NCBI GenBank assembly: GCA_011364905.1
Contig: RDNZ01000002.1
Location: 37,994 to 101,993, forward strand
Reading direction: 5' to 3'
Length of the DNA: 64,000 bases
DNA from: Candidatus Thorarchaeota archaeon
GTDB taxonomy: Archaea > Asgardarchaeota > Thorarchaeia > Thorarchaeales > Thorarchaeaceae
Under the pieces are notes generated by a model that searched no databases, had not been told where the DNA came from, and saw nothing but the letters and a program-made list of their open reading frames with translations. Both the position numbers and the translations under genes were made by a program. Below, piece by piece: positions 18,467 to 31,193 of the stretch (the first letter of the stretch is position 1; each line of letters starts with the position of its first letter).

Positions 18467-18644
18467 GTATTATCGACCTCCCGGAAAAGAATGAAACTAA
18501 CTTTCCAATGAACTGGCAAAATATCACGCTTATAAGTTACTAGTTTTGGAAACAAAAGCATGCATAGGATTTGTGCTGAAACGGAGCACAAATGAATCCA
18601 TCAAAAGAGAAAAGGAACTCTGGGATTTACGGAAAGAAAAGGTA

Positions 18645-19198: not shown

Positions 19199-20599
19199 CT
19201 AGTCTTCAACAAGTGTGTTTTGAAAACTGAATCCTTTCCACAAGAGCAATGCTCCGATACTTGACACCAGACCACTCAACAAAAGCACTACAGGAATGCC
19301 AGAAACCGAGATTAACCAACCAATAAGAGCAACTTGAGGTATTGCAGCCAACACTACAAGAGTAGGTAACAATGAGTAGACTCCGTTTCGAATTCTATTG
19401 GGAATAACATCAATCAATACACGGATCCATAGAATAGCTGCGACAGTGAAGAAAACTCCTCCACCAAACCATACTGTGAGAATTAGGAAAATTGGCACGA
19501 TTGATTCAGAGGGCACCTTAAGGAATACTATGTTTGTGAATGGAATAGCAACATCGATCAGCTCCGAATTGACCAGTGATGGAGGGAAAACGAGCATGAT
19601 TATCGCGAAGAGCCAAAAGAACAATGCTCCTGAGGACTGAATGAATCTAAAACGAGAGACCCATCTTCTGGGTTCAAACCTTTTAGCCCAAACTCCTGAT
19701 CGCTCCCAGAGAAATGCGAACACGACAAACACAGTTGTCATCAGAAGAGCTACTGCAAAGTCAGAGGTCAAGTATTCATACAGATATGGATACATGATCA
19801 GCTCGGCCCATGTGAATCCAATGCTCAGGAATAGAGTATTCCCAAGAATGATGTACTTCAGAAAAGGACTGCTAATGATATGTCGGGCGCCTTCTTTCAG
19901 GAGTGAGAAGTACTTGACTTCAACTTCATCTGTTTGTCCAAGCTCGCGTTTGATAGGGATATCACGAACTAGCATGACCGAAGCGACAGCAATCAGCATA
20001 CAAGCTATGGACTGTATTTGAAATACGAAAGCGCGTGCAACCAGTACTGCAATAAAAGCTCCGGGCAAGATAGCAAGAGCACGTGAGATCCTGAGGAACA
20101 TAGCCTGCTTTCCCACGAAGACACCGTAATGCGCTTTATCGTTGTCCTCAGGAACCGTCAACGTGTAGTTGTTATCAAACCACGAGTCAAGTGCGCCACT
20201 CTCTTGTGATGCAGCGACACCCATCAGGATATACACTACCAGAAACAGACCAAATGGTGAACTTGCAGTGATTAGTGAAACTATGTAAAAAGCAGCTGAA
20301 TACGTCAGAAATGCTGAGGCTAGTACCCATCGCTGGCCAACCAGGTCTCCAAGTGTACCTGTGGGGTAATCAAGAAGAGTCTGCACAACTTTTTGAACAA
20401 CTATGAACACGCCTGCCAGCGCCAAGCCGTTGATATAGGAGCCATTCCCTAGAGCCTCTGCGATGAATATGAGGTAGAAGGTAGCCGAGATACTAATTGC
20501 CGCAGTCATTGATGTCGATAGGCCAAGAAAGGTGGCGGCTAGCCTAGTTACCTCTGGTTTTTCTCCCTGTAGACCAAAGTAAGAAGTGATTCTACCCAC
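19199..20599 (-). CDS. MFS transporter (paralogue of 54756..56174)
   Basis: About 12 TMs; DYPTGTLGDLVGQR loop motif; SGALDSWFDNN. Confidence 0.88.
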   Translation of the reverse strand: MGRITSYFGLQGEKPEVTRLAATFLGLSTSMTAAISISATFYLIFIAEALGNGSYINGLALAGVFIVVQKVVQTLLDYPTGTLGDLVGQRWVLASAFLTYSAAFYIVSLITASSPFGLFLVVYILMGVAASQESGALDSWFDNNYTLTVPEDNDKAHYGVFVGKQAMFLRISRALAILPGAFIAVLVARAFVFQIQSIACMLIAVASVMLVRDIPIKRELGQTDEVEVKYFSLLKEGARHIISSPFLKYIILGNTLFLSIGFTWAELIMYPYLYEYLTSDFAVALLMTTVFVVFAFLWERSGVWAKRFEPRRWVSRFRFIQSSGALFFWLFAIIMLVFPPSLVNSELIDVAIPFTNIVFLKVPSESIVPIFLILTVWFGGGVFFTVAAILWIRVLIDVIPNRIRNGVYSLLPTLVVLAAIPQVALIGWLISVSGIPVVLLLSGLVSSIGALLLWKGFSFQNTLVED

Positions 20600-20602
20600 A
20601 CG

Positions 20603-20684
20603 TATTACCCTGTACTAGATTGAAAGTCGCTTACTAATAATTCGTACGTCAAGAAGAAGTGGAGCCGGCTCTGGGATTTGCACC
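20603..20684 (-). repeat. 82-bp direct repeat, copy 1 (tRNA-Cys 3' end plus downstream flank)
   Basis: Aligns without gaps to 22641..22722 with 7 mismatches (75/82), counted by eye. Confidence 0.92.
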
Positions 20685-20735
20685 CAGGTAAAACAGCTCT
20701 GCAGGCTGTCGCGTAAGCTTCTCCGCCAAACTGAC
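20660..20735 (-). tRNA. tRNA-Cys(GCA) full-length degenerate copy, probable pseudo-tRNA
   Basis: 76 nt, 3 substitutions relative to 23969..24044. The acceptor 5' strand GTCAGTT gives a U2-G71 wobble and an A4-C69 mismatch. Confidence 0.8.
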
Positions 20736-20843
20736 TTGGATGGTTTGTTGGATTAGCCTATTTACTAAAAATGATGTTGGCAAAAGCTGAAGGCAATTCT
20801 TCTAGGTTGATGATTTGCATCAATTTACCCATAGGCAAGACTT

Positions 20844-22289
20844 TCAAAGACGAACCAGTAACCAGAGATAGTACCCCGGATTAAAGGTATAGACACCAAT
20901 GGGACTATAAAGAGAGAATGATGGATCATTCACGAGTGCAATTTCCTGAGCGATAAATGGGACAATAGTCGTATCACTTGAGCTCACGATGACTAAATAG
21001 TCAGGTTCCAAGTTGTAGACGTAATCAGGATTGTATCCCGATTTATTGAATACTTCGGGTGTCAGTAATCCATACGTATCTATTGTTCGAAGTTTTGAGT
21101 AAAAAGGAATTGCGCCAACGTCGCTAACAGCAATCACTGAGTCAGGCGGAGCATTTTCGAATAGATACTTCCCAATTTGGATATGTGCATTTTCTAGGCT
21201 TTGACCATATGCCAGTGCGTGATCAGAAACAGCTCCAATTCTCGAAACAGGTGCAAAAAGAATAATCATAATTGGTATAACATATCTAAGACGCCACAAT
21301 AGTTGATAGAATTCCTGTAAGTTATGCGTAATTCTTGGTTCAACTTTTTTCGCAATTGTATATAACCTAATTCCAAATTCAGTGCTTAGGATTACAAGGG
21401 GGACAATTGCAGGGAATAGGAATCTGAAATCATAAGCCATGATGGGTTCCCAGATCCATGTGACAAGAACTAAAGCAACCAATAAGACAAGGTTTCGCAG
21501 TGTTGGTAAATTCGGCTTTTCGATTTCTATCAAAGACATAGCCATTGCAAAGAATAATGGAATGAAATACAGAATGAATTGAAATGATGTATAAATAGAG
21601 AGTCGGGATAAAAAGCCAACAGTCTTGAATGCTGTAGGGGATGAAAACAGTGTTCCGAAATACAGCAAACGGCCTATCTGAAAAACGACAATTGGAATAC
21701 CGACTACAATACTCGAAATGAAACTATCCCTATTTCTATGGTACAAAATATCCAGTGAAAGCATTGCCAAAACAATTAATGAGCCTTCTGTCCGAGTGAT
21801 AGCTACAAAGAAGGCGAATATCAATCTTTCAAAAAGACTATGATCATATCGCCATATCAACAGAACGATAAACAGCATATAGGTGGCTGTTTCCATTCCG
21901 GAAATGCTGTGAACACCTGAAGCAGGGATAACGGCCAGTAACAGAGGAGGAATAAAAGCATACTCCCGAGAGAAGTTCTGCAGGGTTATTCGATTGAGGA
22001 CAATTAAGATTGCGTGAAATGAAATGATCCCTAAAAACTTTGAGACAACTACTAAATCTGCTCCGAAAAAGGCAAATGGAGCAAGTAAGACTGTCAAGAA
22101 GAAGGTTGAAGAACCTTCGAGGGGCGCATCACCTATGTTCCACACAAACTGACCAGTTTTGGCAAGGTTTTCTGCAAATCTAAATGTAATGAATGCGTCA
22201 TCAACGGTAAATTGATACATCAGTATTTGATAAGCGAGAAGAATTACATGTGGAATGAAATTTCGTAGTTGCATGCGCCTACATCCCAA
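20844..22289 (-). CDS. GT-C superfamily membrane glycosyltransferase-like protein (AftB/ArnT-like)
   Basis: VDDAFITFRFAENLA..G..VWN.G..PLEGSST, SGMET, TRTEG, DVGAIPFYS..RTIDTYGL; many TMs. Confidence 0.75.
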   Translation of the reverse strand: MGCRRMQLRNFIPHVILLAYQILMYQFTVDDAFITFRFAENLAKTGQFVWNIGDAPLEGSSTFFLTVLLAPFAFFGADLVVVSKFLGIISFHAILIVLNRITLQNFSREYAFIPPLLLAVIPASGVHSISGMETATYMLFIVLLIWRYDHSLFERLIFAFFVAITRTEGSLIVLAMLSLDILYHRNRDSFISSIVVGIPIVVFQIGRLLYFGTLFSSPTAFKTVGFLSRLSIYTSFQFILYFIPLFFAMAMSLIEIEKPNLPTLRNLVLLVALVLVTWIWEPIMAYDFRFLFPAIVPLVILSTEFGIRLYTIAKKVEPRITHNLQEFYQLLWRLRYVIPIMIILFAPVSRIGAVSDHALAYGQSLENAHIQIGKYLFENAPPDSVIAVSDVGAIPFYSKLRTIDTYGLLTPEVFNKSGYNPDYVYNLEPDYLVIVSSSDTTIVPFIAQEIALVNDPSFSLYSPIGVYTFNPGYYLWLLVRL

Positions 22290-22389
22290 TTACGAGCTTT
22301 TCTTATCTTGCGCGATGGAACTTGCACATAATTTAACTTTTCCCAGTCTCTAGGCAACTGTATATAGAAAAGGGAGAACTCAATGATTC

Positions 22390-22414
22390 GCGTGCCCTCC
22401 TTTGCTGGGCACGC
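22390..22414. other. GC-rich perfect hairpin (8-bp stem, 9-nt loop)
   Basis: GCGTGCCC-TCCTTTGCT-GGGCACGC between the methyltransferase fragment and the GT-C gene. Confidence 0.6.
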
Positions 22415-22443
22415 AAAAGTCAAGCTGATACAAGTGGCATTAG

Positions 22444-22641
22444 TTATCTGTGGCGATACTTCCTGAGGAAGGCTATGCCATCTGTGCCATTTGTTTCATT
22501 TGAGCCAACACTGAATAGTAAAGCTCCACCTCTAATCAGTAATCGATGAAAGTCCATGAAAAGACGGAGGTGCATGGTCCTTGGGATACGAAAGACCGCA
22601 TATGTCGAAACGATACCATCAAATGTTTCGTTATAACACAT
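22444..22641 (-). pseudogene. Truncated class I SAM-dependent methyltransferase (central fragment only)
   Basis: TFDGIVSTYAVFRIPR...FHRLLIRGGALLFS matches the post-motif-II core; motif I is missing and the 5' end abuts repeat copy 2. Confidence 0.7.
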
Positions 22642-22722
22642 ATTACCCTATACTAGGTTGATGGTCGCTTACTAATAATTCGTACGTCAAGAAGAAATGG
22701 AGCAGGCTCTGGGAATTGCACC
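22641..22722 (-). repeat. 82-bp direct repeat, copy 2, containing a 25-nt tRNA-Cys 3' fragment (22698..22722)
   Basis: Minus strand GGTGCAATTCCCAGAGCCTGCTCCA is the T-arm to CCA with 2 substitutions, plus the same 57-nt flank as copy 1. Confidence 0.9.
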
Positions 22723-22754
22723 TTGAGGAATCGGTTTACAACTCAGATTCAATT

Positions 22755-23930
22755 TCAAAGCTCGAGTCGTAGTATTTCTTGGAATTTTGGTAACTCCTTA
22801 ATCGATGCCAAATCACGATCATTTAATGCGGTGCTTTTCAGCCTTTCATCAAGTCTAATGGACCTCTCTAAGAATTGCAGAGCATCATCAGTTTCACCAA
22901 GTTTGCACAAGGCACAAGCTTTGTTGTAGATGATATTAGCATCATCTTCTTTCAGTTTAAGAGCTTCATCCAGCGATGTTAATGCATCAGCATCTCGATT
23001 CAGTTCCATCAACGCAAATCCATGCTCAGCCCAAGCTTCCCAGTCCTTCGGATGTGATATTGTTAGTTCACGTAGTTGGACCTCAGCCTCTTCATTTCTA
23101 GCGAGTCTCAATAATGTTCTACTATGCAATAGTTTCCCATCATAGTGATTCGAATCAAGCTCTACAACTTTTCTAAATGCTACTTCAGAAGCGAAAAGAA
23201 ATCCACCTCGAGCAAAACCCTGTCCTCTGGCAAACCACGCTTGTGGGTTTTTCGGATCTTTTTCAATTTCAGGCATTGTTACTTGATCCATAATCCGGTA
23301 CGAATCCTCTCTTTGAATAATAGTTGCCAGTCTGATATTGACCATATTCTGGTGATATGTATCAATACCCTTGATTTTGGCTGCTTTCTGAAGAATGTCT
23401 TTTGCTTCAGCATATCTCTCCATATATTGCAGATATTTACCAAGAGTGTGGAATGCATCGAAGTTCTTTTTGTTCAGTTTAATCACTTTGCGAATTATCT
23501 CTTCAGCTTCATTGAATTGACCTTTTTCAAAAAGCAAAAGACTTAGTCCTTTGAGTGCCTCCTCATCTTTGGGGTTTTCACTGATAGATTGTCGATATTC
23601 GTCCTCAGTTGGAGTTTTTTCAACCTCGACAACCTCATCAGTATCAGGTACATTCTGGAGTAGCATCTTCATTGTAAACACTGCAAAACCTACATCTCCA
23701 AGAGCTTCCGCTTTGGATATGGCTTGTTTTGCCTCACGCAAGCGGCCTAGATCTTGTAGAGTTTGTGCGAGACCTACCCATGCAGTTGAGTAGTTCGGAT
23801 TTATCTCAATTGCTTTTCGAAATTTGGATTCAGCGGCTGAAAACTTTTCTGTCTTCAGTAATTCATAGCCCTCATTAGCTAAATCTTCTGAACTGTTCAC
23901 CATCACAACAACTCCCAGTTTGATAGACAA
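22755..23930 (-). CDS. Tetratricopeptide repeat protein
   Basis: Multiple TPR units (AW..LA..L..LGR..EA; IIYNKACALCKLGETDDAL.FLERSI.LD). Confidence 0.88.
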   Translation of the reverse strand: MSIKLGVVVMVNSSEDLANEGYELLKTEKFSAAESKFRKAIEINPNYSTAWVGLAQTLQDLGRLREAKQAISKAEALGDVGFAVFTMKMLLQNVPDTDEVVEVEKTPTEDEYRQSISENPKDEEALKGLSLLLFEKGQFNEAEEIIRKVIKLNKKNFDAFHTLGKYLQYMERYAEAKDILQKAAKIKGIDTYHQNMVNIRLATIIQREDSYRIMDQVTMPEIEKDPKNPQAWFARGQGFARGGFLFASEVAFRKVVELDSNHYDGKLLHSRTLLRLARNEEAEVQLRELTISHPKDWEAWAEHGFALMELNRDADALTSLDEALKLKEDDANIIYNKACALCKLGETDDALQFLERSIRLDERLKSTALNDRDLASIKELPKFQEILRLEL

Positions 23931-23968
23931 CTACGCACCAGTTGATAAATACTTCGAACAAAATAAGA

Positions 23969-24044
23969 TGGAGCCGGCTCTGGGATTTGCACCCAGGTAA
24001 AACAGCTCTGCAGGCTGTCGCGTAAACTTCTCCGCCAAACCGGC
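23969..24044 (-). tRNA. trnC: tRNA-Cys (anticodon GCA), intact, CCA encoded
   Basis: Cloverleaf folded by hand: acceptor GCCGGTT/AGCCGGC, D stem GCG/CGC, anticodon stem ACAGC/GCTGT with loop CT-GCA-GA, T stem CTGGG/CCCAG, U73 discriminator (the Cys identity element), then CCA. Confidence 0.93.
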
Positions 24045-24092
24045 TCAGCTGAGGTTTTTGTCACATTATTAGTTTTAAGGATGTCGGCAAAA
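24045..24092 (-). promoter_or_regulatory. tRNA-Cys leader and putative BRE/TATA promoter
   Basis: Minus strand TTTTGCCGACATCCTTAAAA about 30 nt upstream of the mature 5' end; the motif recurs in three other copies. Confidence 0.65.
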
Positions 24093-24186
24093 TCTGCGTC
24101 TATCTAATTGACAGTTATTTCATTGAGTACTGCGGAAAGTTTTTCATCTTGGATACAGTCTGGTTACTTCATTTGAGGGGCAATCT

Positions 24187-25737
24187 ATGTCGAAATTTCC
24201 AGAGCTCCATCCTGTCAATATTGGAATGTTGTTGACTAGGAATTCTCAATATCGCCCAAATCATCTTGGAATAATTGTTGAGAACATCCGACTTTCATAT
24301 CAGGAGTTTAACAGGGGTGTCAATCGCGTAGCCAATATGCTATGTGGTTTAGGTGTAGGAAAGGGAGATAAAATTGCAATTGTCCTGCCTAATTGTTTTG
24401 AATTGCTTGAACTGTATTGGGCAATAGCTAAACTCGGTGCAGTATCTGTACCCCTAAGTACATTACTCATGAGTCGAGGATTTAGATCACTCATCAATGA
24501 TTCTGATGCCAAGATAGTCGTAACAAGTTCTCAATATATGAGCATTCTAGAAGAGATTAAACATAAATTGACTGATGTTGAGGACTTTATTCTCATTGAT
24601 GACTCTTCAAATTCGGAGTATAAAGACTATCAATCACTCAAGGCAGAGGCCAGCGATAAAGAGCCTGATGTTGAAGAAATAGATGAAAATGACCCCTATA
24701 ATATCATCTATAGTAGCGGAACAACTGGATTGCCAAAGGGCATCGTGCTCTCGCATTACGTCCGGGCGTATTATGCCACTCTATTTGCATCAAGCTTCAG
24801 AATGACACCTGAAAACGTAATCATTCATTCGGGCTCTATTGTGTTTAATGGAGCCTTTGTTACTATGATGCCTGCGATGTTACTTGGATCAACATTTATT
24901 CTAAAACTCAAGTTTGATGCCCAAGAATTTATTGAAACAGTCCAACGTGAAAAGGTCACTCATGTGATTATGGTTCCTTCACAATTAATTGCCATCCTAA
25001 ATGCTCCGAACTTCTCGGTCGAGGCTCTGGAATCTTTAGAAATGATCTGCTCTGTTGGTGCGCCATTACTTATGGATGTCAAGGAAAAGCTCAATCAGCT
25101 CCTGCCAAATCGGTTTTACGAGCTCTATGGACTAACAGAAGGTTTCCTAACAGTTTTGGACAGAACGCATACTGCCAACAAGCTGCAATCGGTAGGTATT
25201 CCTCCACCTTTCTTCAAAATGCGAATTGTAAATGAAAATGATGAGGATGTTCCGGTTGGAGAGATTGGGGAAATTATAGGAAAAGGACCCACATTGATGA
25301 CAGAATACTATAAACGCCCGGACATAACCACAGAGGCAATGAGGGATGGGTGGCTCCATTCTGGGGATTTAGGTTATCTTGATGATGATGGTTTTCTCTA
25401 TTTGGTTGATCGGAAAAAAGACATGATTATTTCTGGTGGAGTAAATGTCTATCCAAAAGATATCGAGGAGGTCGTGGCGCAACATCCATCTGTGAAGGAA
25501 GTCGCAGTCTTTGGAATTCCAAACGAAAAATGGGGAGAGGCTTCTGTAGCAGCTGTTATACTACGAGACCCATTGTCGATAACAACAGAGGAACTAAGGA
25601 AATGGGTCAATGAGAGGGTTGGAGCGAAGTTTCAGAGAGTTCAACATGTTCTCATTGTCGATGATTTTCCCCGCAGTATATCAGGAAAGATACTCAAACG
25701 AGAACTACGTGAAACATTTCCAGATGGAACACCATAG
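24187..25737 (+). CDS. AMP-dependent acyl-CoA synthetase (class I adenylate-forming enzyme)
   Basis: IIYSSGTTGLPKG, YGLTEG, WLHSGDLG, DRKKDMIISGGVNVYP, SGKILKRELR. Confidence 0.93.
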   Translation: MSKFPELHPVNIGMLLTRNSQYRPNHLGIIVENIRLSYQEFNRGVNRVANMLCGLGVGKGDKIAIVLPNCFELLELYWAIAKLGAVSVPLSTLLMSRGFRSLINDSDAKIVVTSSQYMSILEEIKHKLTDVEDFILIDDSSNSEYKDYQSLKAEASDKEPDVEEIDENDPYNIIYSSGTTGLPKGIVLSHYVRAYYATLFASSFRMTPENVIIHSGSIVFNGAFVTMMPAMLLGSTFILKLKFDAQEFIETVQREKVTHVIMVPSQLIAILNAPNFSVEALESLEMICSVGAPLLMDVKEKLNQLLPNRFYELYGLTEGFLTVLDRTHTANKLQSVGIPPPFFKMRIVNENDEDVPVGEIGEIIGKGPTLMTEYYKRPDITTEAMRDGWLHSGDLGYLDDDGFLYLVDRKKDMIISGGVNVYPKDIEEVVAQHPSVKEVAVFGIPNEKWGEASVAAVILRDPLSITTEELRKWVNERVGAKFQRVQHVLIVDDFPRSISGKILKRELRETFPDGTP

Positions 25738-25761
25738 CAGCTTCACTTGATACGCCATAGT

Positions 25762-26607
25762 TCAATCGAAATTATTTTTCAGCCAATCTATTAAAGAGGG
25801 CGAGCACATAGCGTGTGTTTCTGCATGTTTCGCTCCAGGAATAACTTGAAATTCCTTGTTTTTACTAGGGACTTCATCAAAGAACGCACGTGCTGTTTCG
25901 ATAGAGAAAATCTCATCTTTTTCACCAATGCCAACGAGAACTGGGAAATCCAAATGCTCGGGAAATCGAAACTTCTTCATGAATCGTTGTGCATTAAGAT
26001 AATTCAGGAATCTTGGTGAATATTTGAAATTGAATAAAGGATCCTCTTTACCTATAATGCCCTCCCGTTTATATTCCATGACTGGGCGGTTGTAAGCAAA
26101 AATCATTTTTCCTATTGTCTTCAATTTCTCGCCTGTTGACATTTGGGGGAATGCGCCAGGCTTAATTTCTCGCCCAATACTCAGAAGAATAAGTCCAGAG
26201 ATATGTTCTGCACAATGATTCAGCCCTTCTTCAAGTACAACCAGGTTTCCCAGACTGCTGCCAACCAGAATAACTCCTGAAAATTCCTGGTTTTTTACAA
26301 ACATGATAGTTTCACAAACATCATTCACGAGTCTTTCCTTACTCGGATAATCACCCCTAACACCATCAGAAAGACCATGACCACGCAGATCGAGACCAAA
26401 TACGGAAAATCCAGCATCTGAGAGTGGACTTCCTAGCGAATCGTAGGGCTCACTATATGCGGTTATTCCGTGAAAAATGATAATTGCCGTCTTTGACGGA
26501 ACTGAGGGTTTCCATTCACGCAGGAACAGAACTTTACCATCTGTTGTATGAATTAGGTGATGGGGTTTATCAAATTCTGCTCTAAGCTTCACAACATCAA
26601 TATCCAT
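25762..26607 (-). CDS. Alpha/beta hydrolase (lysophospholipase-like)
   Basis: FHGITAYS, DLRGHGLS, nucleophile GSSLG, Asp in GEKDE, His in GAKH. Start set at ATG 26607 because the longer ORF runs into the tRNA fragment. Confidence 0.88.
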   Translation of the reverse strand: MDIDVVKLRAEFDKPHHLIHTTDGKVLFLREWKPSVPSKTAIIIFHGITAYSEPYDSLGSPLSDAGFSVFGLDLRGHGLSDGVRGDYPSKERLVNDVCETIMFVKNQEFSGVILVGSSLGNLVVLEEGLNHCAEHISGLILLSIGREIKPGAFPQMSTGEKLKTIGKMIFAYNRPVMEYKREGIIGKEDPLFNFKYSPRFLNYLNAQRFMKKFRFPEHLDFPVLVGIGEKDEIFSIETARAFFDEVPSKNKEFQVIPGAKHAETHAMCSPSLIDWLKNNFD

Positions 26608-26615
26608 ACAAATAC

Positions 26616-26688
26616 CACGCAACCTACTCCGCCAGACCGGCTCTGCTGAATGGCATCTCAAATTCGAGATTTAAGGATGCCGGCAAAA
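26616..26688 (-). repeat. tRNA-Cys 5' fragment (about 26 nt) with leader and promoter
   Basis: Minus strand TTTTGCCGGCATCCTTAAA...CAGCAGA-GCCGGTCTGGCGGAGTAGGTTGCGTG is collinear with 24019..24092, spacing conserved to within 1 nt. Confidence 0.82.
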
Positions 26689-26772
26689 GGGGCGTGTACC
26701 TATCAAAATTTAGTTGGATAACTTGTGTGAAAGACTGAAATAAGCTAAACTGAATGAAGGAGATGATATAAT

Positions 26773-27645
26773 ATGCAAATAGGTCTACAAATTCCTAGCT
26801 TTACATGGCCTGGTGAAATAAGAGCAACATTGAGCGAAATCGCAAGGACTGCTGAAAAGGCAGGATTTTCCAGTATTTGGGTCATGGACCACTTCTTTCA
26901 GTTAGAAATGTTTGGTGATGCTACTCAGCCAATGTTAGAAGCGTATAGCACCCTGAACTATATAGCTGCACAAACTAGCAAAGTAAAGTTAGGTACATTA
27001 GTAACAGGAGTTGTTTATCGTCATCCAGGTGCATTAATTAAAACTGTTACTACATTGGATGTTTTATCAGGTGGAAGGGCATATTTTGGTGTGGGAGCTG
27101 CCTGGTATGAAAGAGAGGCACGAGGATTGGGACTGCCTTTTCCGAAAATTCAGCACCGATTTGAAATGTTAGAAGAAACCTTGCAAATAGCAAAGCAAAT
27201 GTTCTCAGGAAAACGAGACCCATACAATGGAAAACATCATCAATTAGCTGAACCAATAAACAGTCCGCAGCCGCTCTCAAAACCACATCCTAAGATATTG
27301 ATAGGAGGAATGGGTGAGAAAAAGACTCTACGGCTCGTAGCTCTATATGCTGATGCATGCAATTTATTCGCTTATGCGGGTCTTGATGCAATCAATCACA
27401 AACTTAAGGTCTTGAAAAAGCATTGTGAAACCATTGGAAGACCATACGATGAAATAGAACGCACCGCATTGAGTACAGTGGATTTGTCTGCGGGAAATAT
27501 GTCAACTAAGGACGTTATAGGAATGTGCAAAGGACTGGCAAATGAGAGTATTGAACATGTTATTCTCAACATGCCAAATGTACATGAGATAACCCCACTC
27601 GAGAAGTTTGGAGAAGAAATCATTCCCGCTGTCGCAGACTTTTGA
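26773..27645 (+). CDS. LLM class F420-dependent oxidoreductase
   Basis: AEKAGFSSIWVMDHFFQ, LGTLVTGVVYRHP, LDVLSGGRAYFGVGAAW, PKILIGGMGEKKTLRLVA. Confidence 0.92.
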   Translation: MQIGLQIPSFTWPGEIRATLSEIARTAEKAGFSSIWVMDHFFQLEMFGDATQPMLEAYSTLNYIAAQTSKVKLGTLVTGVVYRHPGALIKTVTTLDVLSGGRAYFGVGAAWYEREARGLGLPFPKIQHRFEMLEETLQIAKQMFSGKRDPYNGKHHQLAEPINSPQPLSKPHPKILIGGMGEKKTLRLVALYADACNLFAYAGLDAINHKLKVLKKHCETIGRPYDEIERTALSTVDLSAGNMSTKDVIGMCKGLANESIEHVILNMPNVHEITPLEKFGEEIIPAVADF

Positions 27646-27684
27646 GATCATAAAAGGTGAGAGAATCTTTCACATGGATTTTAA

Positions 27685-27732
27685 CTCAGCTGAGTGAAGA
27701 CACTTTAGACTGGATTTGAGGAAGTCGGCAAA
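27685..27732 (-). repeat. Promoter/leader-only remnant of the tRNA-Cys unit
   Basis: CTCAGCTGAG (10/10), exactly 20 nt, then TTTGAGGAAGTCGGCAAA (16/18), compared with 24044..24091. Confidence 0.7.
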
Positions 27733-27770
27733 GTGGCAAGCAGTATGGATGAAAGTTTGTTACATTCATT

Positions 27771-28616
27771 TCATTTCTCTTGAAGTCCGAATCCACTTTC
27801 CATAAGTTCCAAGAGTTTGGCGACGAATCGTGTAGCAGGAGCACCATAAGAAACCTCCTCATCAAACATCACAGTTAGATTGAGGAATTCGCCGATATTA
27901 TCTTGATTCATTGGGTTTCTTGGTTTCTTAGAGATGCCACCTAATGCAAACACAACTGGGTGTAAACCAACAGGAATCGCCCAGCCTCCACCTTTTCCGA
28001 ACATTCCTATAGCTGTTACCCCAATTGTACCCATCATTTTTTTCCTCAAGAATGGATCTGATCTGAATTTTCGCCAGAAGAGTTTTCTAAATGGGCCCGG
28101 GAGACGACGAAGGCTACTATCTGAGGAAGATTTCCTTTTTCCAGAAACAATGCTATCACCAGAGTCAGCCTTTTGAGCTTGGCGAATCTCATCATGAATT
28201 TGTCTGAAACTCTTTTCACTTGCCTTCCGGACACAATATTGAGTTGGAATCTTCCCCGCTTTCGTTTCTTTTTCAACAATCATTCCAACATCAACATCAT
28301 CGAATATGACAAGCTTCTTTTTCCCTTTTCTGAGAGCTTGAACCTCTATATGTTCGCTGACTGCTTGACTAACACATTTTATCACCCAAGCTGTGAAAGA
28401 CATCTTCTCCCCTGTTCTTTCTTCTATCTCAGAAATAAACGTCCGAGCTTGTGTTACATCAACTTCTACTAATCCGTAGATACGATGTTTTGGTGCTAAG
28501 TTGTTAAGTAACTCTATGGGCAACGTGAATCTGTGTGTTATTTCCCTAAATGAAATGTCATTCCTTTCTTTAGCTGCTTCATCTAATTCTTGACTTCTTA
28601 AATTCATGAAGAACAA
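27771..28616 (-). CDS. Stand-alone 2-oxoacid dehydrogenase E2-like acyltransferase catalytic domain, catalytic His absent
   Basis: GLVEVDVT, MSFTAWVIKCVSQAV, VDVGMIVE, GTIGVTAIGMFG; C-terminal FDEEVSYGA in place of the usual DHRxxDG; no lipoyl domain. Confidence 0.82.
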   Translation of the reverse strand: MFFMNLRSQELDEAAKERNDISFREITHRFTLPIELLNNLAPKHRIYGLVEVDVTQARTFISEIEERTGEKMSFTAWVIKCVSQAVSEHIEVQALRKGKKKLVIFDDVDVGMIVEKETKAGKIPTQYCVRKASEKSFRQIHDEIRQAQKADSGDSIVSGKRKSSSDSSLRRLPGPFRKLFWRKFRSDPFLRKKMMGTIGVTAIGMFGKGGGWAIPVGLHPVVFALGGISKKPRNPMNQDNIGEFLNLTVMFDEEVSYGAPATRFVAKLLELMESGFGLQEK

Positions 28617-30587: not shown

Positions 30588-31040
30588 ATGGAGAGAGTAA
30601 ATGAGAAGTATGGTTGGGTAGTGTACCTAGCTCTGAGTCTGTTGTGGTTGGTGGTTGGTCTGTACCAGATCTTCCTTCCCCGCGAACTGGCCGTAGATGA
30701 TGTTCAGCTTATCTTGAACTTGCCACTGGGTGATCTCGAGGCATCGAGTCCGCTGGCCATGGACTTTGCGTTCTGGCTATATGGGAGTCTGGGTCTCCTG
30801 AAGGTCAGTTGGTCCTTCTTTGTCTTAGCGATAACCCTAACGGGCTTCAAGAAAGGAGAAAAGTGGGCATGGTATACTCTGTGGTCAGTACCTGCTCTCT
30901 TGGTGAGTACTGGACTTTTCAACACTATCTACATTGGTGATGTTTCCCAGATGTTGCAATGGGTACCGATTCTAAGCCTATCGCTATTGGGACTCCTCCT
31001 TCCGTATAGGAAGTTCTTCCCCAAACAACCACGCGTGTGA
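30588..31040 (+). CDS. Hypothetical membrane protein (about 4 TM)
   Basis: GGAGGT RBS; hydrophobic segments; GFKKGEKWAWYTLW. Confidence 0.75.
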   Translation: MERVNEKYGWVVYLALSLLWLVVGLYQIFLPRELAVDDVQLILNLPLGDLEASSPLAMDFAFWLYGSLGLLKVSWSFFVLAITLTGFKKGEKWAWYTLWSVPALLVSTGLFNTIYIGDVSQMLQWVPILSLSLLGLLLPYRKFFPKQPRV

Positions 31041-31193
31041 GCTGAAAGAAAACACCTCGGACTGCAGTTAGGGACATCAGCGAAGGTCGCTTGTATACTT
31101 CCGGATACGCTTCTGTTACCGTTAAAGTAGCAGAATGACAAAAGCTTTAACACGGAACTGGGTCTGCCACTTACATTCTCAGGCGAACCAGAT

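Follow-up and report, generated by a model that had tools for sequence, protein, structure and literature searches.

A tRNA-Cys gene as a probable recurrent insertion site flanked by a two-sided additive island in a Thorarchaeial genome

Archaeal integrative elements are reportedly found at tRNA genes, a setting that has been linked to "gene capture". Integrons have reportedly been seen in archaeal MAGs as well, and the CIMEs of streptococci are said to be cis-mobilisable elements that arise when segments accrete in tandem at a tRNA or another att site. In Prochlorococcus, tRNA-seeded islands are proposed to gather the DNA left by transient integrating elements, and 623 genomes yielded 501 elements that carry a tyrosine or serine recombinase of their own (Hackl et al., 10.1101/2020.12.28.424599). 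Elements at tRNA genes have also been described in Asgard archaea (Wu et al. 2022, PMC8813620). Here, we analyze a window of 64,000 nucleotides from a Thorarchaeial MAG (GCA_011364905.1, contig RDNZ01000002.1; assembly 3.08 Mb, 81% complete, 4.6% contamination), in which whole and partial copies of a tRNA-Cys unit alternate with small gene modules. Our data suggest that the tRNA-Cys gene is a recurrent insertion site and that the 20.6-27.8 kb stretch is a two-sided additive island built by these insertions, a reading to which we assign a probability of about 0.62. The known model of a tRNA-seeded additive island (Hackl et al.) would already account for att-flanked DNA that carries no integrase.

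tRNA-Cys units and modules in the window

A tRNA-Cys unit was taken as promoter, leader and tRNA, and the whole 3.08-Mb assembly was searched by nhmmer with a profile of 16 congeneric units. Exactly five matches have E<9, all on the minus strand of the 20.6-27.8 kb locus, with E-values of 5e-43 (C), 1.5e-31 (A), 6.9e-13 (D), 0.0018 (B) and 0.0023 (E). BLASTN with a word size of 7 finds no further copies of the five stretches elsewhere in the genome, so D and E are not generic promoters, an option that the initial annotation had raised. Weaker pieces were sought by a scan with the R1 model, filters off, in a 22-kb search. The features are as follows.

19199-20599, minus: MFS transporter gene (Pfam MFS_1, 5.2e-8)
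20598-20803, minus: unit A, second full-length tRNA-Cys, tRNA at 20660-20735 (ARAGORN; nhmmer)
20598-20659, minus: 62-nt flank of unit A, which also follows the tRNA part of B
20770-20786, minus: weakened promoter of unit A, with a type I leader as in G010
20844-22635, minus: module 4, a possible methyltransferase fragment (about 22444-22647) and a 481-aa multi-pass membrane protein (20844-22289), from ORF lists
22636-22722, minus: piece B, tRNA positions 52-76 (22698-22722) and the 62-nt flank; homology starts at tRNA index 52
22755-23930, minus: module 3, TPR protein, co-directional with the tRNA (Pfam TPR families)
23960-24111, minus: unit C, intact tRNA-Cys(GCA), tRNA at 23969-24044 (ARAGORN; Rfam tRNA 54.8 bits)
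24074-24092, minus: promoter of unit C, TTTTGCCGACATCCTTAAA, a 19-mer nearly invariant in 19 family units
24187-26607, mixed: module 2, alpha/beta hydrolase (25762-26607, minus; PF12146) and acyl-CoA ligase (24187-25737, plus; PF00501)
26616-26709, minus: piece D, promoter, leader and tRNA positions 1 to about 23-24 (26641-26618) (nhmmer; R1 model positions 17-111)
26773-27645, plus: module 1, F420-dependent LLM-class oxidoreductase (PF00296, 3.4e-39; TIGR03560, 4.7e-87)
27685-27761, minus: piece E, promoter (27715-27732) and leader to tRNA +1, no tRNA body (R1 model positions 9-86)
27771-28616, minus: acyltransferase-like gene, 2-oxoacid_dh catalytic domain (PF00198, 3.3e-15)
31014-31100, minus: candidate 5' piece with a decayed promoter, a leader of type II and some 17 nt of tRNA (R1 scan)

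The pieces are homologous to one another. A and C share 77 nt at 96% identity, and A and B have 87 nt in common at 91%, namely the 25-nt tRNA 3' end and the 62-nt flank. D matches the 5' part of C at 84% and the promoter at 81-94%, and E is 89% identical to the promoter 18-mer. ARAGORN calls two tRNA-Cys(GCA) genes, those of A and C. The five co-oriented tRNA-Cys pieces of the initial annotation are thereby borne out, with some corrections. Unit A is full-length with a weak promoter, as claimed, but it is less degenerate: the 5' strand of its acceptor carries two transitions (C2>T and G4>A) leaving one non-pair (A4.C69), and Rfam scores its tRNA at 42.7 bits and that of C at 54.8, both above the gathering score of 29. 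Piece E, rightly read as promoter and leader, is longer than first drawn.

On the 5' side, the end of D is followed after 10 nt by the hydrolase ATG at 26607, and the copied promoter in D may now drive this gene. Orthologues of D, joined to the hydrolase at the identical junction, are present in G008, G014 and G018, where module 2 is found at 85-92% DNA identity; its ligase matches the NCBIfam long-chain-fatty-acid--CoA ligase at 1.2e-130. The LLM gene is antisense to the tRNA. Piece E aligns with its counterpart in G008 (E') and with a junction in G018. The array is bordered on this side by the acyltransferase-like gene, and the stretch 3' of that gene is what flanks E upstream; in G010, an intact tRNA-Cys follows directly on this flank. 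Further upstream and co-oriented, the candidate at 31014-31100 is a weak match (7.2 bits, E=0.064 in the 22-kb search, model positions 23-102) whose leader aligns with those of E and of relatives; it may be the oldest 5' piece. Decay increases outward on the 5' side, where bit scores drop from 129 for C to 42 for D, 18 for E and 7 for the candidate.

On the 3' side, the 62-nt flank follows the tRNA part in both A and B. In A it directly precedes the MFS gene, whose start is the end of the flank, and in G018, too, a decayed tRNA 3' piece with the 62-nt flank stands before the MFS gene. Module 3 has no DNA match in 30 relatives. In module 4, the membrane protein had been named a GT-C glycosyltransferase, a name that finds no Pfam or NCBIfam match, and the methyltransferase fragment is weakly supported (Methyltransf_11, E=0.19). 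Modules of this kind are mostly 0.4-2.6 kb long; several are antisense to the tRNA and some hold two to four genes.

Layout, sides and breakpoints at related loci

The E-LLM-D-hydrolase/ligase-C order recurs in G008, an independent MAG (JBHLOX010000076), where the spacings are again 1045 and 2597 nt; the layout of the C-TPR-B-membrane protein-A half is known from the present MAG alone, with no independent replicate. In principle, strain variants could have been joined at the conserved tRNA during metagenome assembly. Contigs of relatives end at tRNA-Cys pieces (C36 and C180 of G003, C61 and C104 of G018), so the repeat does trouble assemblers, and the 4.6% contamination of the MAG points the same way. 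However, the pieces have diverged (73-96%) and are not identical k-mer joins, the 5' layout is repeated in G008, and the same pattern is seen in MAGs of numerous studies as well as in family genomes assembled as a single contig. An artefact of this type is scarcely credible.

We mapped 23 related tRNA-Cys loci with 25 partial units. All 25 are co-oriented with the intact gene, and 24 keep to one side rule, with 5' pieces upstream of it and 3' pieces downstream; the sole exception is a 5' piece in G002 that lies downstream. Partial units are present across 16 genera of the family, in agreement with the long-lived hotspot first proposed. Empty and occupied sites are found within one MAG: at G010 C60 the tRNA-Cys is followed directly by the f4 gene, and at G010 C225 the tRNA is followed by an 815-bp RibD_C module, a 3' piece that starts at position 37 and keeps the old flank, and then f4. 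Four different modules lie between the tRNA and the conserved f4 (in G010, G005, L031 and G076), each leaving a 3' piece before f4. Module order differs as well. G018 reads D'-hydrolase-ligase-(junction)-LLM-DinB-tRNA, placing the LLM gene on the opposite side of module 2, while the window and G008 read E-LLM-D-hydrolase-ligase-tRNA with the same module ends. The comparison of relatives suggested at the outset thus reveals variable content and order. Together with the side rule, these observations uphold the earlier proposal that modules were added serially by recombination in the tRNA unit.

Whole second copies are also seen: unit A, a decayed near-full copy in G002, several copies in G003, and two full copies 10 kb apart in G085. 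These would fit a history in which tandem duplication gave tRNA-Cys copies with other genes interleaved, and the surplus copies then decayed at random. Random decay, however, would scatter 5' and 3' remnants over both sides, and the side rule with co-orientation is not the pattern of duplication followed by such decay; the breakpoints are clustered too. In addition, the empty and occupied pairs show foreign DNA between the gene and the displaced piece, and the permuted module order would be unexplained. We regard tandem duplication as very improbable.

The 3' pieces begin at tRNA positions 37-44 or 50-55, that is, in the anticodon or T loop. The 5' pieces end at -25, -13, +1, +1, 10, 12 and 17-23, mostly in the D arm. 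Starts at the anticodon loop, the T loop or the 3' end are reportedly ordinary footprints of site-specific integration. The loop-centered breakpoints suggest that the recombination is site-specific. The tRNA-Cys gene does not have the special status first given to it, since tRNA-Ala, -Val and -Leu of the same genome, and less clearly -Ser and -Met, carry similar pieces. At tRNA-Ala, -Val, -Leu and -Ser, the pieces start at index 54-58 (T loop), at about 37 (anticodon loop), at 45, just after the anticodon stem, or with the last 12 nt. The tRNA-Leu site is occupied in this genome, G003, G015 and G034 and empty in G016 and G010.

Serial insertion and the search for a recombinase

In the serial insertion we favor, incoming DNA would bring a copy of part of the tRNA unit. 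On the 5' side, the shared part would run from the promoter through the leader into the tRNA as far as about the D arm; on the 3' side, it would begin in the anticodon loop or T loop and reach the CCA end. Recombination within it would put the DNA into the gene and restore one intact gene beside the newcomer, and the displaced partial copy would be pushed outward to decay. Read inward, the 5' side would then consist of possibly the 31014-31100 piece, E, the LLM module, D, the hydrolase/ligase module and C; read outward from C, the 3' side would consist of the TPR module, B, the membrane-protein module, A and the MFS gene. Unit A may be a second whole unit that came or was kept with module 4 and is now decaying. 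The recombinase would be supplied in trans by transient elements that have since departed, and the modules may be cargo or flanking DNA that stayed in place, in line with the tycheposon island model.

No recombinase has been found for the task. The initial annotation reported no integrase in the window, and the profile search extends this to the whole 81%-complete assembly, where PF00589, PF00239 and PF01867 are absent. Of 86 family genomes, only 29 have a PF00589 match, and no such match is found less than 30 kb from a tRNA-Cys unit (about 80 units, 57 family genomes). Ten fetched integrase contigs of the genus have neither a tRNA nor a tRNA piece, no recombinase, transposase or viral protein is found among about 50 scanned module and neighboring proteins, and no IMG/VR contig carries a 3' piece of tRNA-Cys, -Leu or -Ala. 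Serial insertion also sits uneasily with the uniform smallness of the modules, unlike remnants of randomly eroded 10-40 kb elements, with 5' breakpoints (+1, leader, D arm) that differ from classic integrase sublocations, and with the G002 piece that breaks the side rule.

Alternatively, host homologous recombination may have sufficed, by a Campbell-type single crossover in the unit and with no dedicated recombinase. Circles or fragments with any stretch of the tRNA-Cys unit, which is highly conserved, from relatives or from excision between direct copies, would enter this way, and each crossover would duplicate the shared stretch and shuffle modules among lineages. The lack of an integrase near the locus agrees with this, as do the varied repeat lengths (promoter only; promoter with positions 1-12; promoter with positions 1-23; 25 nt with the 62-nt flank in A and B) and the non-tRNA nature of that flank. 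The units are also mosaics of leader types, tRNA variants and flanks, as expected under frequent homologous exchange: the leader of A is like that of G010, those of D and E are of the G008/L031 type, and that of C is of the G005 type. The last 5' module is common to the window and G008, but their leaders differ, so that further exchange must be assumed under serial insertion too. Excision between two copies of the promoter, with re-entry at a third, could account for the swapped modules in G018. However, host recombination can shift existing modules but leaves the first origin of a piece and the 3' starts at the anticodon or T loop unexplained, and at 12-30 nt the pieces would be short for substrates of RadA-type recombination. 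It is a possible but unlikely account of the island.

A dedicated cassette system would need an unrecognized recombinase acting in trans, with integrase-less one-gene modules that carry a tRNA segment as the mobile unit and the tRNA gene serving as an integron's attI and promoter. The modules are small, fairly uniform and encode no recombinase; the same modules occur in varying order among genomes, the pattern appears at several tRNAs of one genome, and a tyrosine recombinase is absent from two thirds of the family genomes. Against this, no candidate enzyme was found, MAG incompleteness and the loss of mobile elements in binning could explain the missing integrases, no free circles were seen, and the module ends share no conserved motif besides the tRNA segment. 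An integron-like reading of the single-gene cassettes first envisaged also does not agree with modules that are often antisense and contain up to four genes, or with breakpoints of several kinds. We consider such a system distinctly unlikely. Of the initial interpretation, the recombination-built hotspot is supported and the likeness to a cassette array is not.

Comparison with known systems

Like integrons, with their IntI, attI, Pc and attC, the locus forms arrays of small modules at one site, in an order that varies between genomes, with a strong promoter at the head. Unlike integrons, it has no intI, its repeats are fragments of the tRNA unit instead of attC hairpins, the modules are often antisense with their own upstream regions, and insertion occurs on both sides of the site. 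CIMEs share with it the att-flanked, integrase-less segments and their tandem stacking at one att site; they derive from known ICEs whose integrases are in the population, and no such helper is seen here. Archaeal integrative elements likewise enter tRNA genes, leave direct repeats of tRNA parts and trap foreign genes. They are, however, many kb long and carry integrase genes or split halves at their ends, whereas the modules here span 0.4-2.6 kb and hold intact, ordinary genes with no integrase remnant.

The Prochlorococcus elements carry recombinases of a kind found at none of the units surveyed here, their islands are one-sided, and the host here is an Asgard archaeon. At the present locus, growth occurs on both sides of the gene, and the 5' pieces duplicate the promoter. 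The initial annotation expected one short duplication per integration, which holds for a single event, but arrays of duplications are known from the Prochlorococcus islands. As in these tycheposon islands, growth takes place beside a full-length tRNA gene, and partial tRNA copies mark past integrations. Incoming DNA that is not excised accumulates, the newest adjoining the tRNA, and in both cases the cargo consists of accessory metabolic genes.

Partial tRNA-Cys units in the window

The initial annotation described five co-oriented pieces of one tRNA-Cys transcription unit, and all five were recovered both by a repeat scan and by an nhmmer profile search of the whole source assembly. The pieces lie on the minus strand and comprise an intact gene (C), a second full-length unit (A), two 5' pieces (D and E) and a 3' piece (B). 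Between them lie small groups of genes, here called modules.

tRNA genes of the locus, followed by the gene order in the tRNA sense, from high to low coordinates
23969-24044, minus strand, tRNA-Cys(GCA) C, predicted by ARAGORN
20660-20735, minus strand, tRNA-Cys(GCA) A, predicted by ARAGORN
Acyltransferase-like gene, then E, then LLM F420 oxidoreductase (antisense), then D
D, then alpha/beta hydrolase (sense; ATG 10 nt past D), then acyl-CoA ligase (antisense), then C
C, then TPR protein, then B, then possible methyltransferase fragment and 481-aa membrane protein, then A
A, then MFS transporter, DUF4345, PEMT-like methyltransferase, DUF1614

In the repeat scan, A and C have 77 nt in common at 96% identity, and A and B match over 87 nt at 91%, which corresponds to the last 25 nt of the tRNA and a 62-nt flank. 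D is 84% identical to C over the first ~25 nt of the tRNA and 81-94% over the promoter region, and E is 89% identical to the promoter 18-mer. By direct sequence reading, the promoter TTTTGCCGACATCCTTAAA ends ~38 nt 5' of tRNA position 1, and it looks like an archaeal BRE/TATA type. The nhmmer profile, built from 16 congeneric tRNA-Cys units, gave exactly five matches with E<9 in the 3.08-Mb assembly, all on the minus strand and in the tRNA-Cys locus (C, 5e-43; A, 1.5e-31; D, 6.9e-13; B, 0.0018; E, 0.0023). BLASTN with word size 7 gave the same picture. Therefore, D and E are not generic promoters scattered over the genome, an alternative raised in the initial annotation and ruled out here by the restriction of the profile matches to one locus and one strand.

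An unfiltered scan added a sixth, weak piece (31014-31100, E=0.064), which is co-oriented and located farther upstream, and its leader resembles that of E. The bit scores on the 5' side drop outward, from 129 to 42, 18 and 7. Between the DUF4345 and PEMT genes, at 18605-18632, stands GTAAATCCCAGAG, followed by a pyrimidine run. By eye, it resembles a tRNA-Cys 3' piece in decay, and its position fits the place predicted if the MFS-DUF4345 pair entered in front of PEMT. This candidate remnant was matched neither by nhmmer nor by scans with R1, a sequence-only model of the unit. Elsewhere in the source genome (G000), ARAGORN with introns allowed predicted a third tRNA-Cys(GCA) of 107 nt (contig C49, 8359-8465); this prediction does not resemble the unit profile, and it could be either a spurious call or a gene with an intron.

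Unit A had been called degenerate. It is better preserved than that, although 4/19 promoter positions are changed. Its Rfam tRNA score is 42.7 bits compared with 54.8 for C (both above the gathering score of 29), and the 5' strand of the acceptor has two transitions, with A4.C69 as the single non-pair. Piece D, in the stretch 26607-26709, has preserved its BRE/TATA almost intact in four species, and the hydrolase ATG follows 10 nt after its end. Transcription of the hydrolase gene may now start from this copied tRNA promoter, in which case the leader would include 24 nt of tRNA. The GT-C label given earlier to the 481-aa membrane protein found no backing, as the protein has no Pfam or NCBIfam match. 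A metagenome scan with this protein returned a single distant match at 24% identity and no replicate of the B/A half of the locus. The half running from C through the TPR gene, B and module 4 (the possible methyltransferase fragment and the membrane protein) to A is known from the source MAG alone, without an independent replicate.

Insertion and reshuffling at tRNA genes

All genomes compared are MAGs, the source assembly being 81% complete in 95 contigs, and breakpoints were read from profile alignments with an accuracy of ~±3 nt. The promoter 19-mer and the tRNA are kept in every tRNA-Cys unit of the genus, and the flanks vary by species. With R1 and nhmmer, partial units turned up in many relatives and in further genera of the family. 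Of 23 mapped loci, 15 contain a total of 25 partial units, every one of them co-oriented with the intact gene (25/25), and 24/25 follow a side rule that puts 5' pieces upstream of the intact gene and 3' pieces downstream of it. In the source genome, the pieces at tRNA-Cys, -Ala, -Val, -Leu, -Ser and -Met obey both orientation and side rule (13/13). Insertion into the gene yields just such a pattern, and duplication followed by random decay would not. The evidence for serial insertion into the tRNA unit is good. If a newcomer brings the shorter part of the gene, the intact gene would be rebuilt and the displaced part would come to lie at the far side of the insert. In the relative G005, an opposite-strand tRNA-Arg(TCT) (L017:9156-9233) is located within the 5'-side tRNA-Cys island, with the partial units on one side of it and the intact gene on the other.

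Empty and occupied sites can be compared directly in G010. On its contig C60, f4, a small membrane-protein gene, comes right after the tRNA, forming an empty site. Contig C225 is occupied; there, the tRNA is separated from f4 by an 815-bp module with a RibD_C-type gene, and a 3' piece from position 37 stands in front of f4 with the old downstream flank kept. Four genomes have f4 with a 3' piece ahead of it, with four different modules between f4 and the tRNA. On the other side of the gene, the upstream flank of E continues in G010 straight into an intact tRNA.

The modules are also permuted. In the tRNA sense, G018 has the hydrolase/ligase module with its D piece first and the LLM module second, whereas the window and G008 have them the other way round; the module ends are alike. 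At the G018 junction, the ligase-side flank is kept to TTTT, the LLM-side end runs from CTGA, and the intervening promoter is deleted. In the window and in G008, G014 and G018, the D pieces have derived changes and the hydrolase junction in common; the D/hydrolase junction therefore arose once. Their upstream neighbours differ. Leader types form a mosaic, with A of the G010 type, D and E of the G008/L031 type and C of the G005 type, so exchange within the unit has apparently been frequent. Module content and order vary at the tRNA-Cys locus, in its empty and occupied sites and in the G018 permutation, as expected from the hotspot proposed in the initial annotation. Homologous recombination acting on the conserved unit can account for this shuffling and for the mosaic units, but not for the origin of the pieces.

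Other tRNA genes of the source genome carry pieces as well.

L077:2660-6000 (G000 C31 26660-30000), tRNA-Ala(GGC) array
L076:1871-2412 (G000 C7 41370-41911), tRNA-Leu(TAG) module and copy

Downstream of tRNA-Ala(GGC) are four 3' pieces of ~22-25 nt, each from the T loop to CCA, spaced 0.5-1.1 kb apart with single small membrane-protein genes between them, and a copy of the promoter and 5' part lies 220 nt upstream, beside a run of N. Three of the interspersed membrane-protein genes look like paralogues. tRNA-Val(GAC) has a pair of 3' pieces, which start in the T loop and in the anticodon loop, respectively, and tRNA-Ser and tRNA-Met have one short piece apiece. Behind tRNA-Leu(TAG) comes a 410-bp module with one gene, for a 116-aa membrane protein, and past it the 3' part of the tRNA is repeated perfectly over 44 nt. 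The perfect repeat suggested a recent insertion, an idea that was dropped because the module is common to three other species (~70% identity in G003, G015 and G034; absent from G016 and G010, where the site is empty). Conversion with the gene 410 bp away may instead have preserved the identity of the repeat. In G003 (contig C64, L090), a displaced tRNA-Leu 3' piece has an extra ~30 nt in the T-arm region.

Breakpoints and the missing recombinase

In the tRNA-Cys map, 3' pieces begin at tRNA positions 37-44 or 50-55; with the other tRNAs of the source genome included, the starts fall at 37-44, 50-58 or in the last 12 nt. The 5' pieces stop at -25, -13, +1, +1, 10, 12 and 17-23. Williams in 2002 reportedly placed the integration sublocations in tRNA genes at the anticodon loop, the T loop and the 3' end. 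The 3'-piece starts match these classic sublocations, whereas the 5'-piece ends (D arm, +1, leader) do not. The loop-centred starts of the 3' pieces point to site-specific recombination as with tRNA-targeting integrases.

The source assembly gave no match to the models for tyrosine recombinases (PF00589), serine recombinases (PF00239) or Cas1 (PF01867), so the absence of an integrase noted earlier for the window extends, for PF00589, to the whole assembly. In a survey of the family, 57/86 genomes have a tRNA-Cys unit match and only 29/86 have any PF00589 match. None of the latter lies within 30 kb of a tRNA-Cys unit in the 57 genomes with such units (~80 units). Ten fetched integrase contigs of the genus contain no tRNA and no piece of the 33 predicted tRNAs of the source genome. 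Some 50 module and neighbouring proteins (~50) were scanned, and no recombinase, transposase or virus protein was found among them; they include GNAT, dienelactone hydrolase, HXXEE, beta-lactamase family, DUF4037, M14 peptidase and methyltransferases, the rest being LLM, DJ-1, RibD_C, CxxCxxCC and small membrane proteins. IMG/VR holds no contig with tRNA-Cys, -Leu or -Ala 3' pieces. The promoter 17-mer occurs in 21 IMG/VR contigs, none a convincing tRNA-Cys unit; four gave weak R1 matches (E 0.001-0.013), two of which, L059 and L067, look like chance matches within coding sequence. A 124-aa conserved ORF beside the tRNA in G005, G008 and G014 has no family match and a coiled-coil-like appearance by eye, and it is not a candidate for the recombinase.

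Archaea usually have a Xer-type enzyme; with no PF00589 match in 57/86 genomes, this enzyme seems absent too. Several of these genomes are 97-99% complete. Mobile elements are often lost from MAGs in binning. The puzzle is that integration-like footprints are abundant, yet two thirds of the family genomes have no tyrosine recombinase, which leaves either transient vectors that escape binning or an unrecognised recombinase. There may also be a dedicated cassette system that acts in trans, but the searches yielded no candidate enzyme for it. In its full form, a trans-acting recombination system of a kind not yet recognised would insert modules of one to a few genes, which lack an integrase but each carry a segment of a tRNA unit, into D-, anticodon- and T-loop positions of tRNA genes. 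Archaea would then have an equivalent of the integron, with the tRNA gene itself as both docking site and promoter. We consider it unlikely, with a probability of roughly one in eight.

Asgard genomes are large and gene-rich with many acquired genes, and the routes of entry are poorly known. The locus and its relatives point to a concrete route, in which tRNA genes are two-sided docking sites where small accessory-gene modules accumulate. Across the whole family, these modules, which encode, for example, hydrolases, ligases, F420 oxidoreductases, methyltransferases and membrane proteins, are reshuffled between lineages.

Comparison with known systems

Asgard elements that integrate at tRNA genes are already known (PMC8813620). 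As in a tRNA-gene integration hotspot, the pieces follow an orientation and side rule and both empty and occupied sites occur, but no integrase-bearing element was found at the site. The initial annotation considered the locus functionally like a cassette array. The same modules in different order, in G018 compared with the window and G008, do resemble an integron. In contrast to integrons, there is no intI (no PF00589 in the source assembly or on the tRNA-Cys contigs of relatives) and no attC, the module borders being tRNA-unit fragments free of border inverted repeats in a scan of 19.5-29 kb. Nor are the genes co-oriented promoterless cassettes, since the LLM and acyl-CoA ligase genes are antisense and orientation is mixed in relatives.

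Among published models, the nearest is the tRNA-seeded additive island of Prochlorococcus, where transient elements integrate and leave, and the leftovers build up beside the tRNA (10.1101/2020.12.28.424599). The present loci differ in that no recombinase is found at ~80 units and most family genomes have no tyrosine recombinase. In addition, the modules are uniformly small, and the island extends in both directions from the gene, with the promoter duplicated in the 5' pieces.
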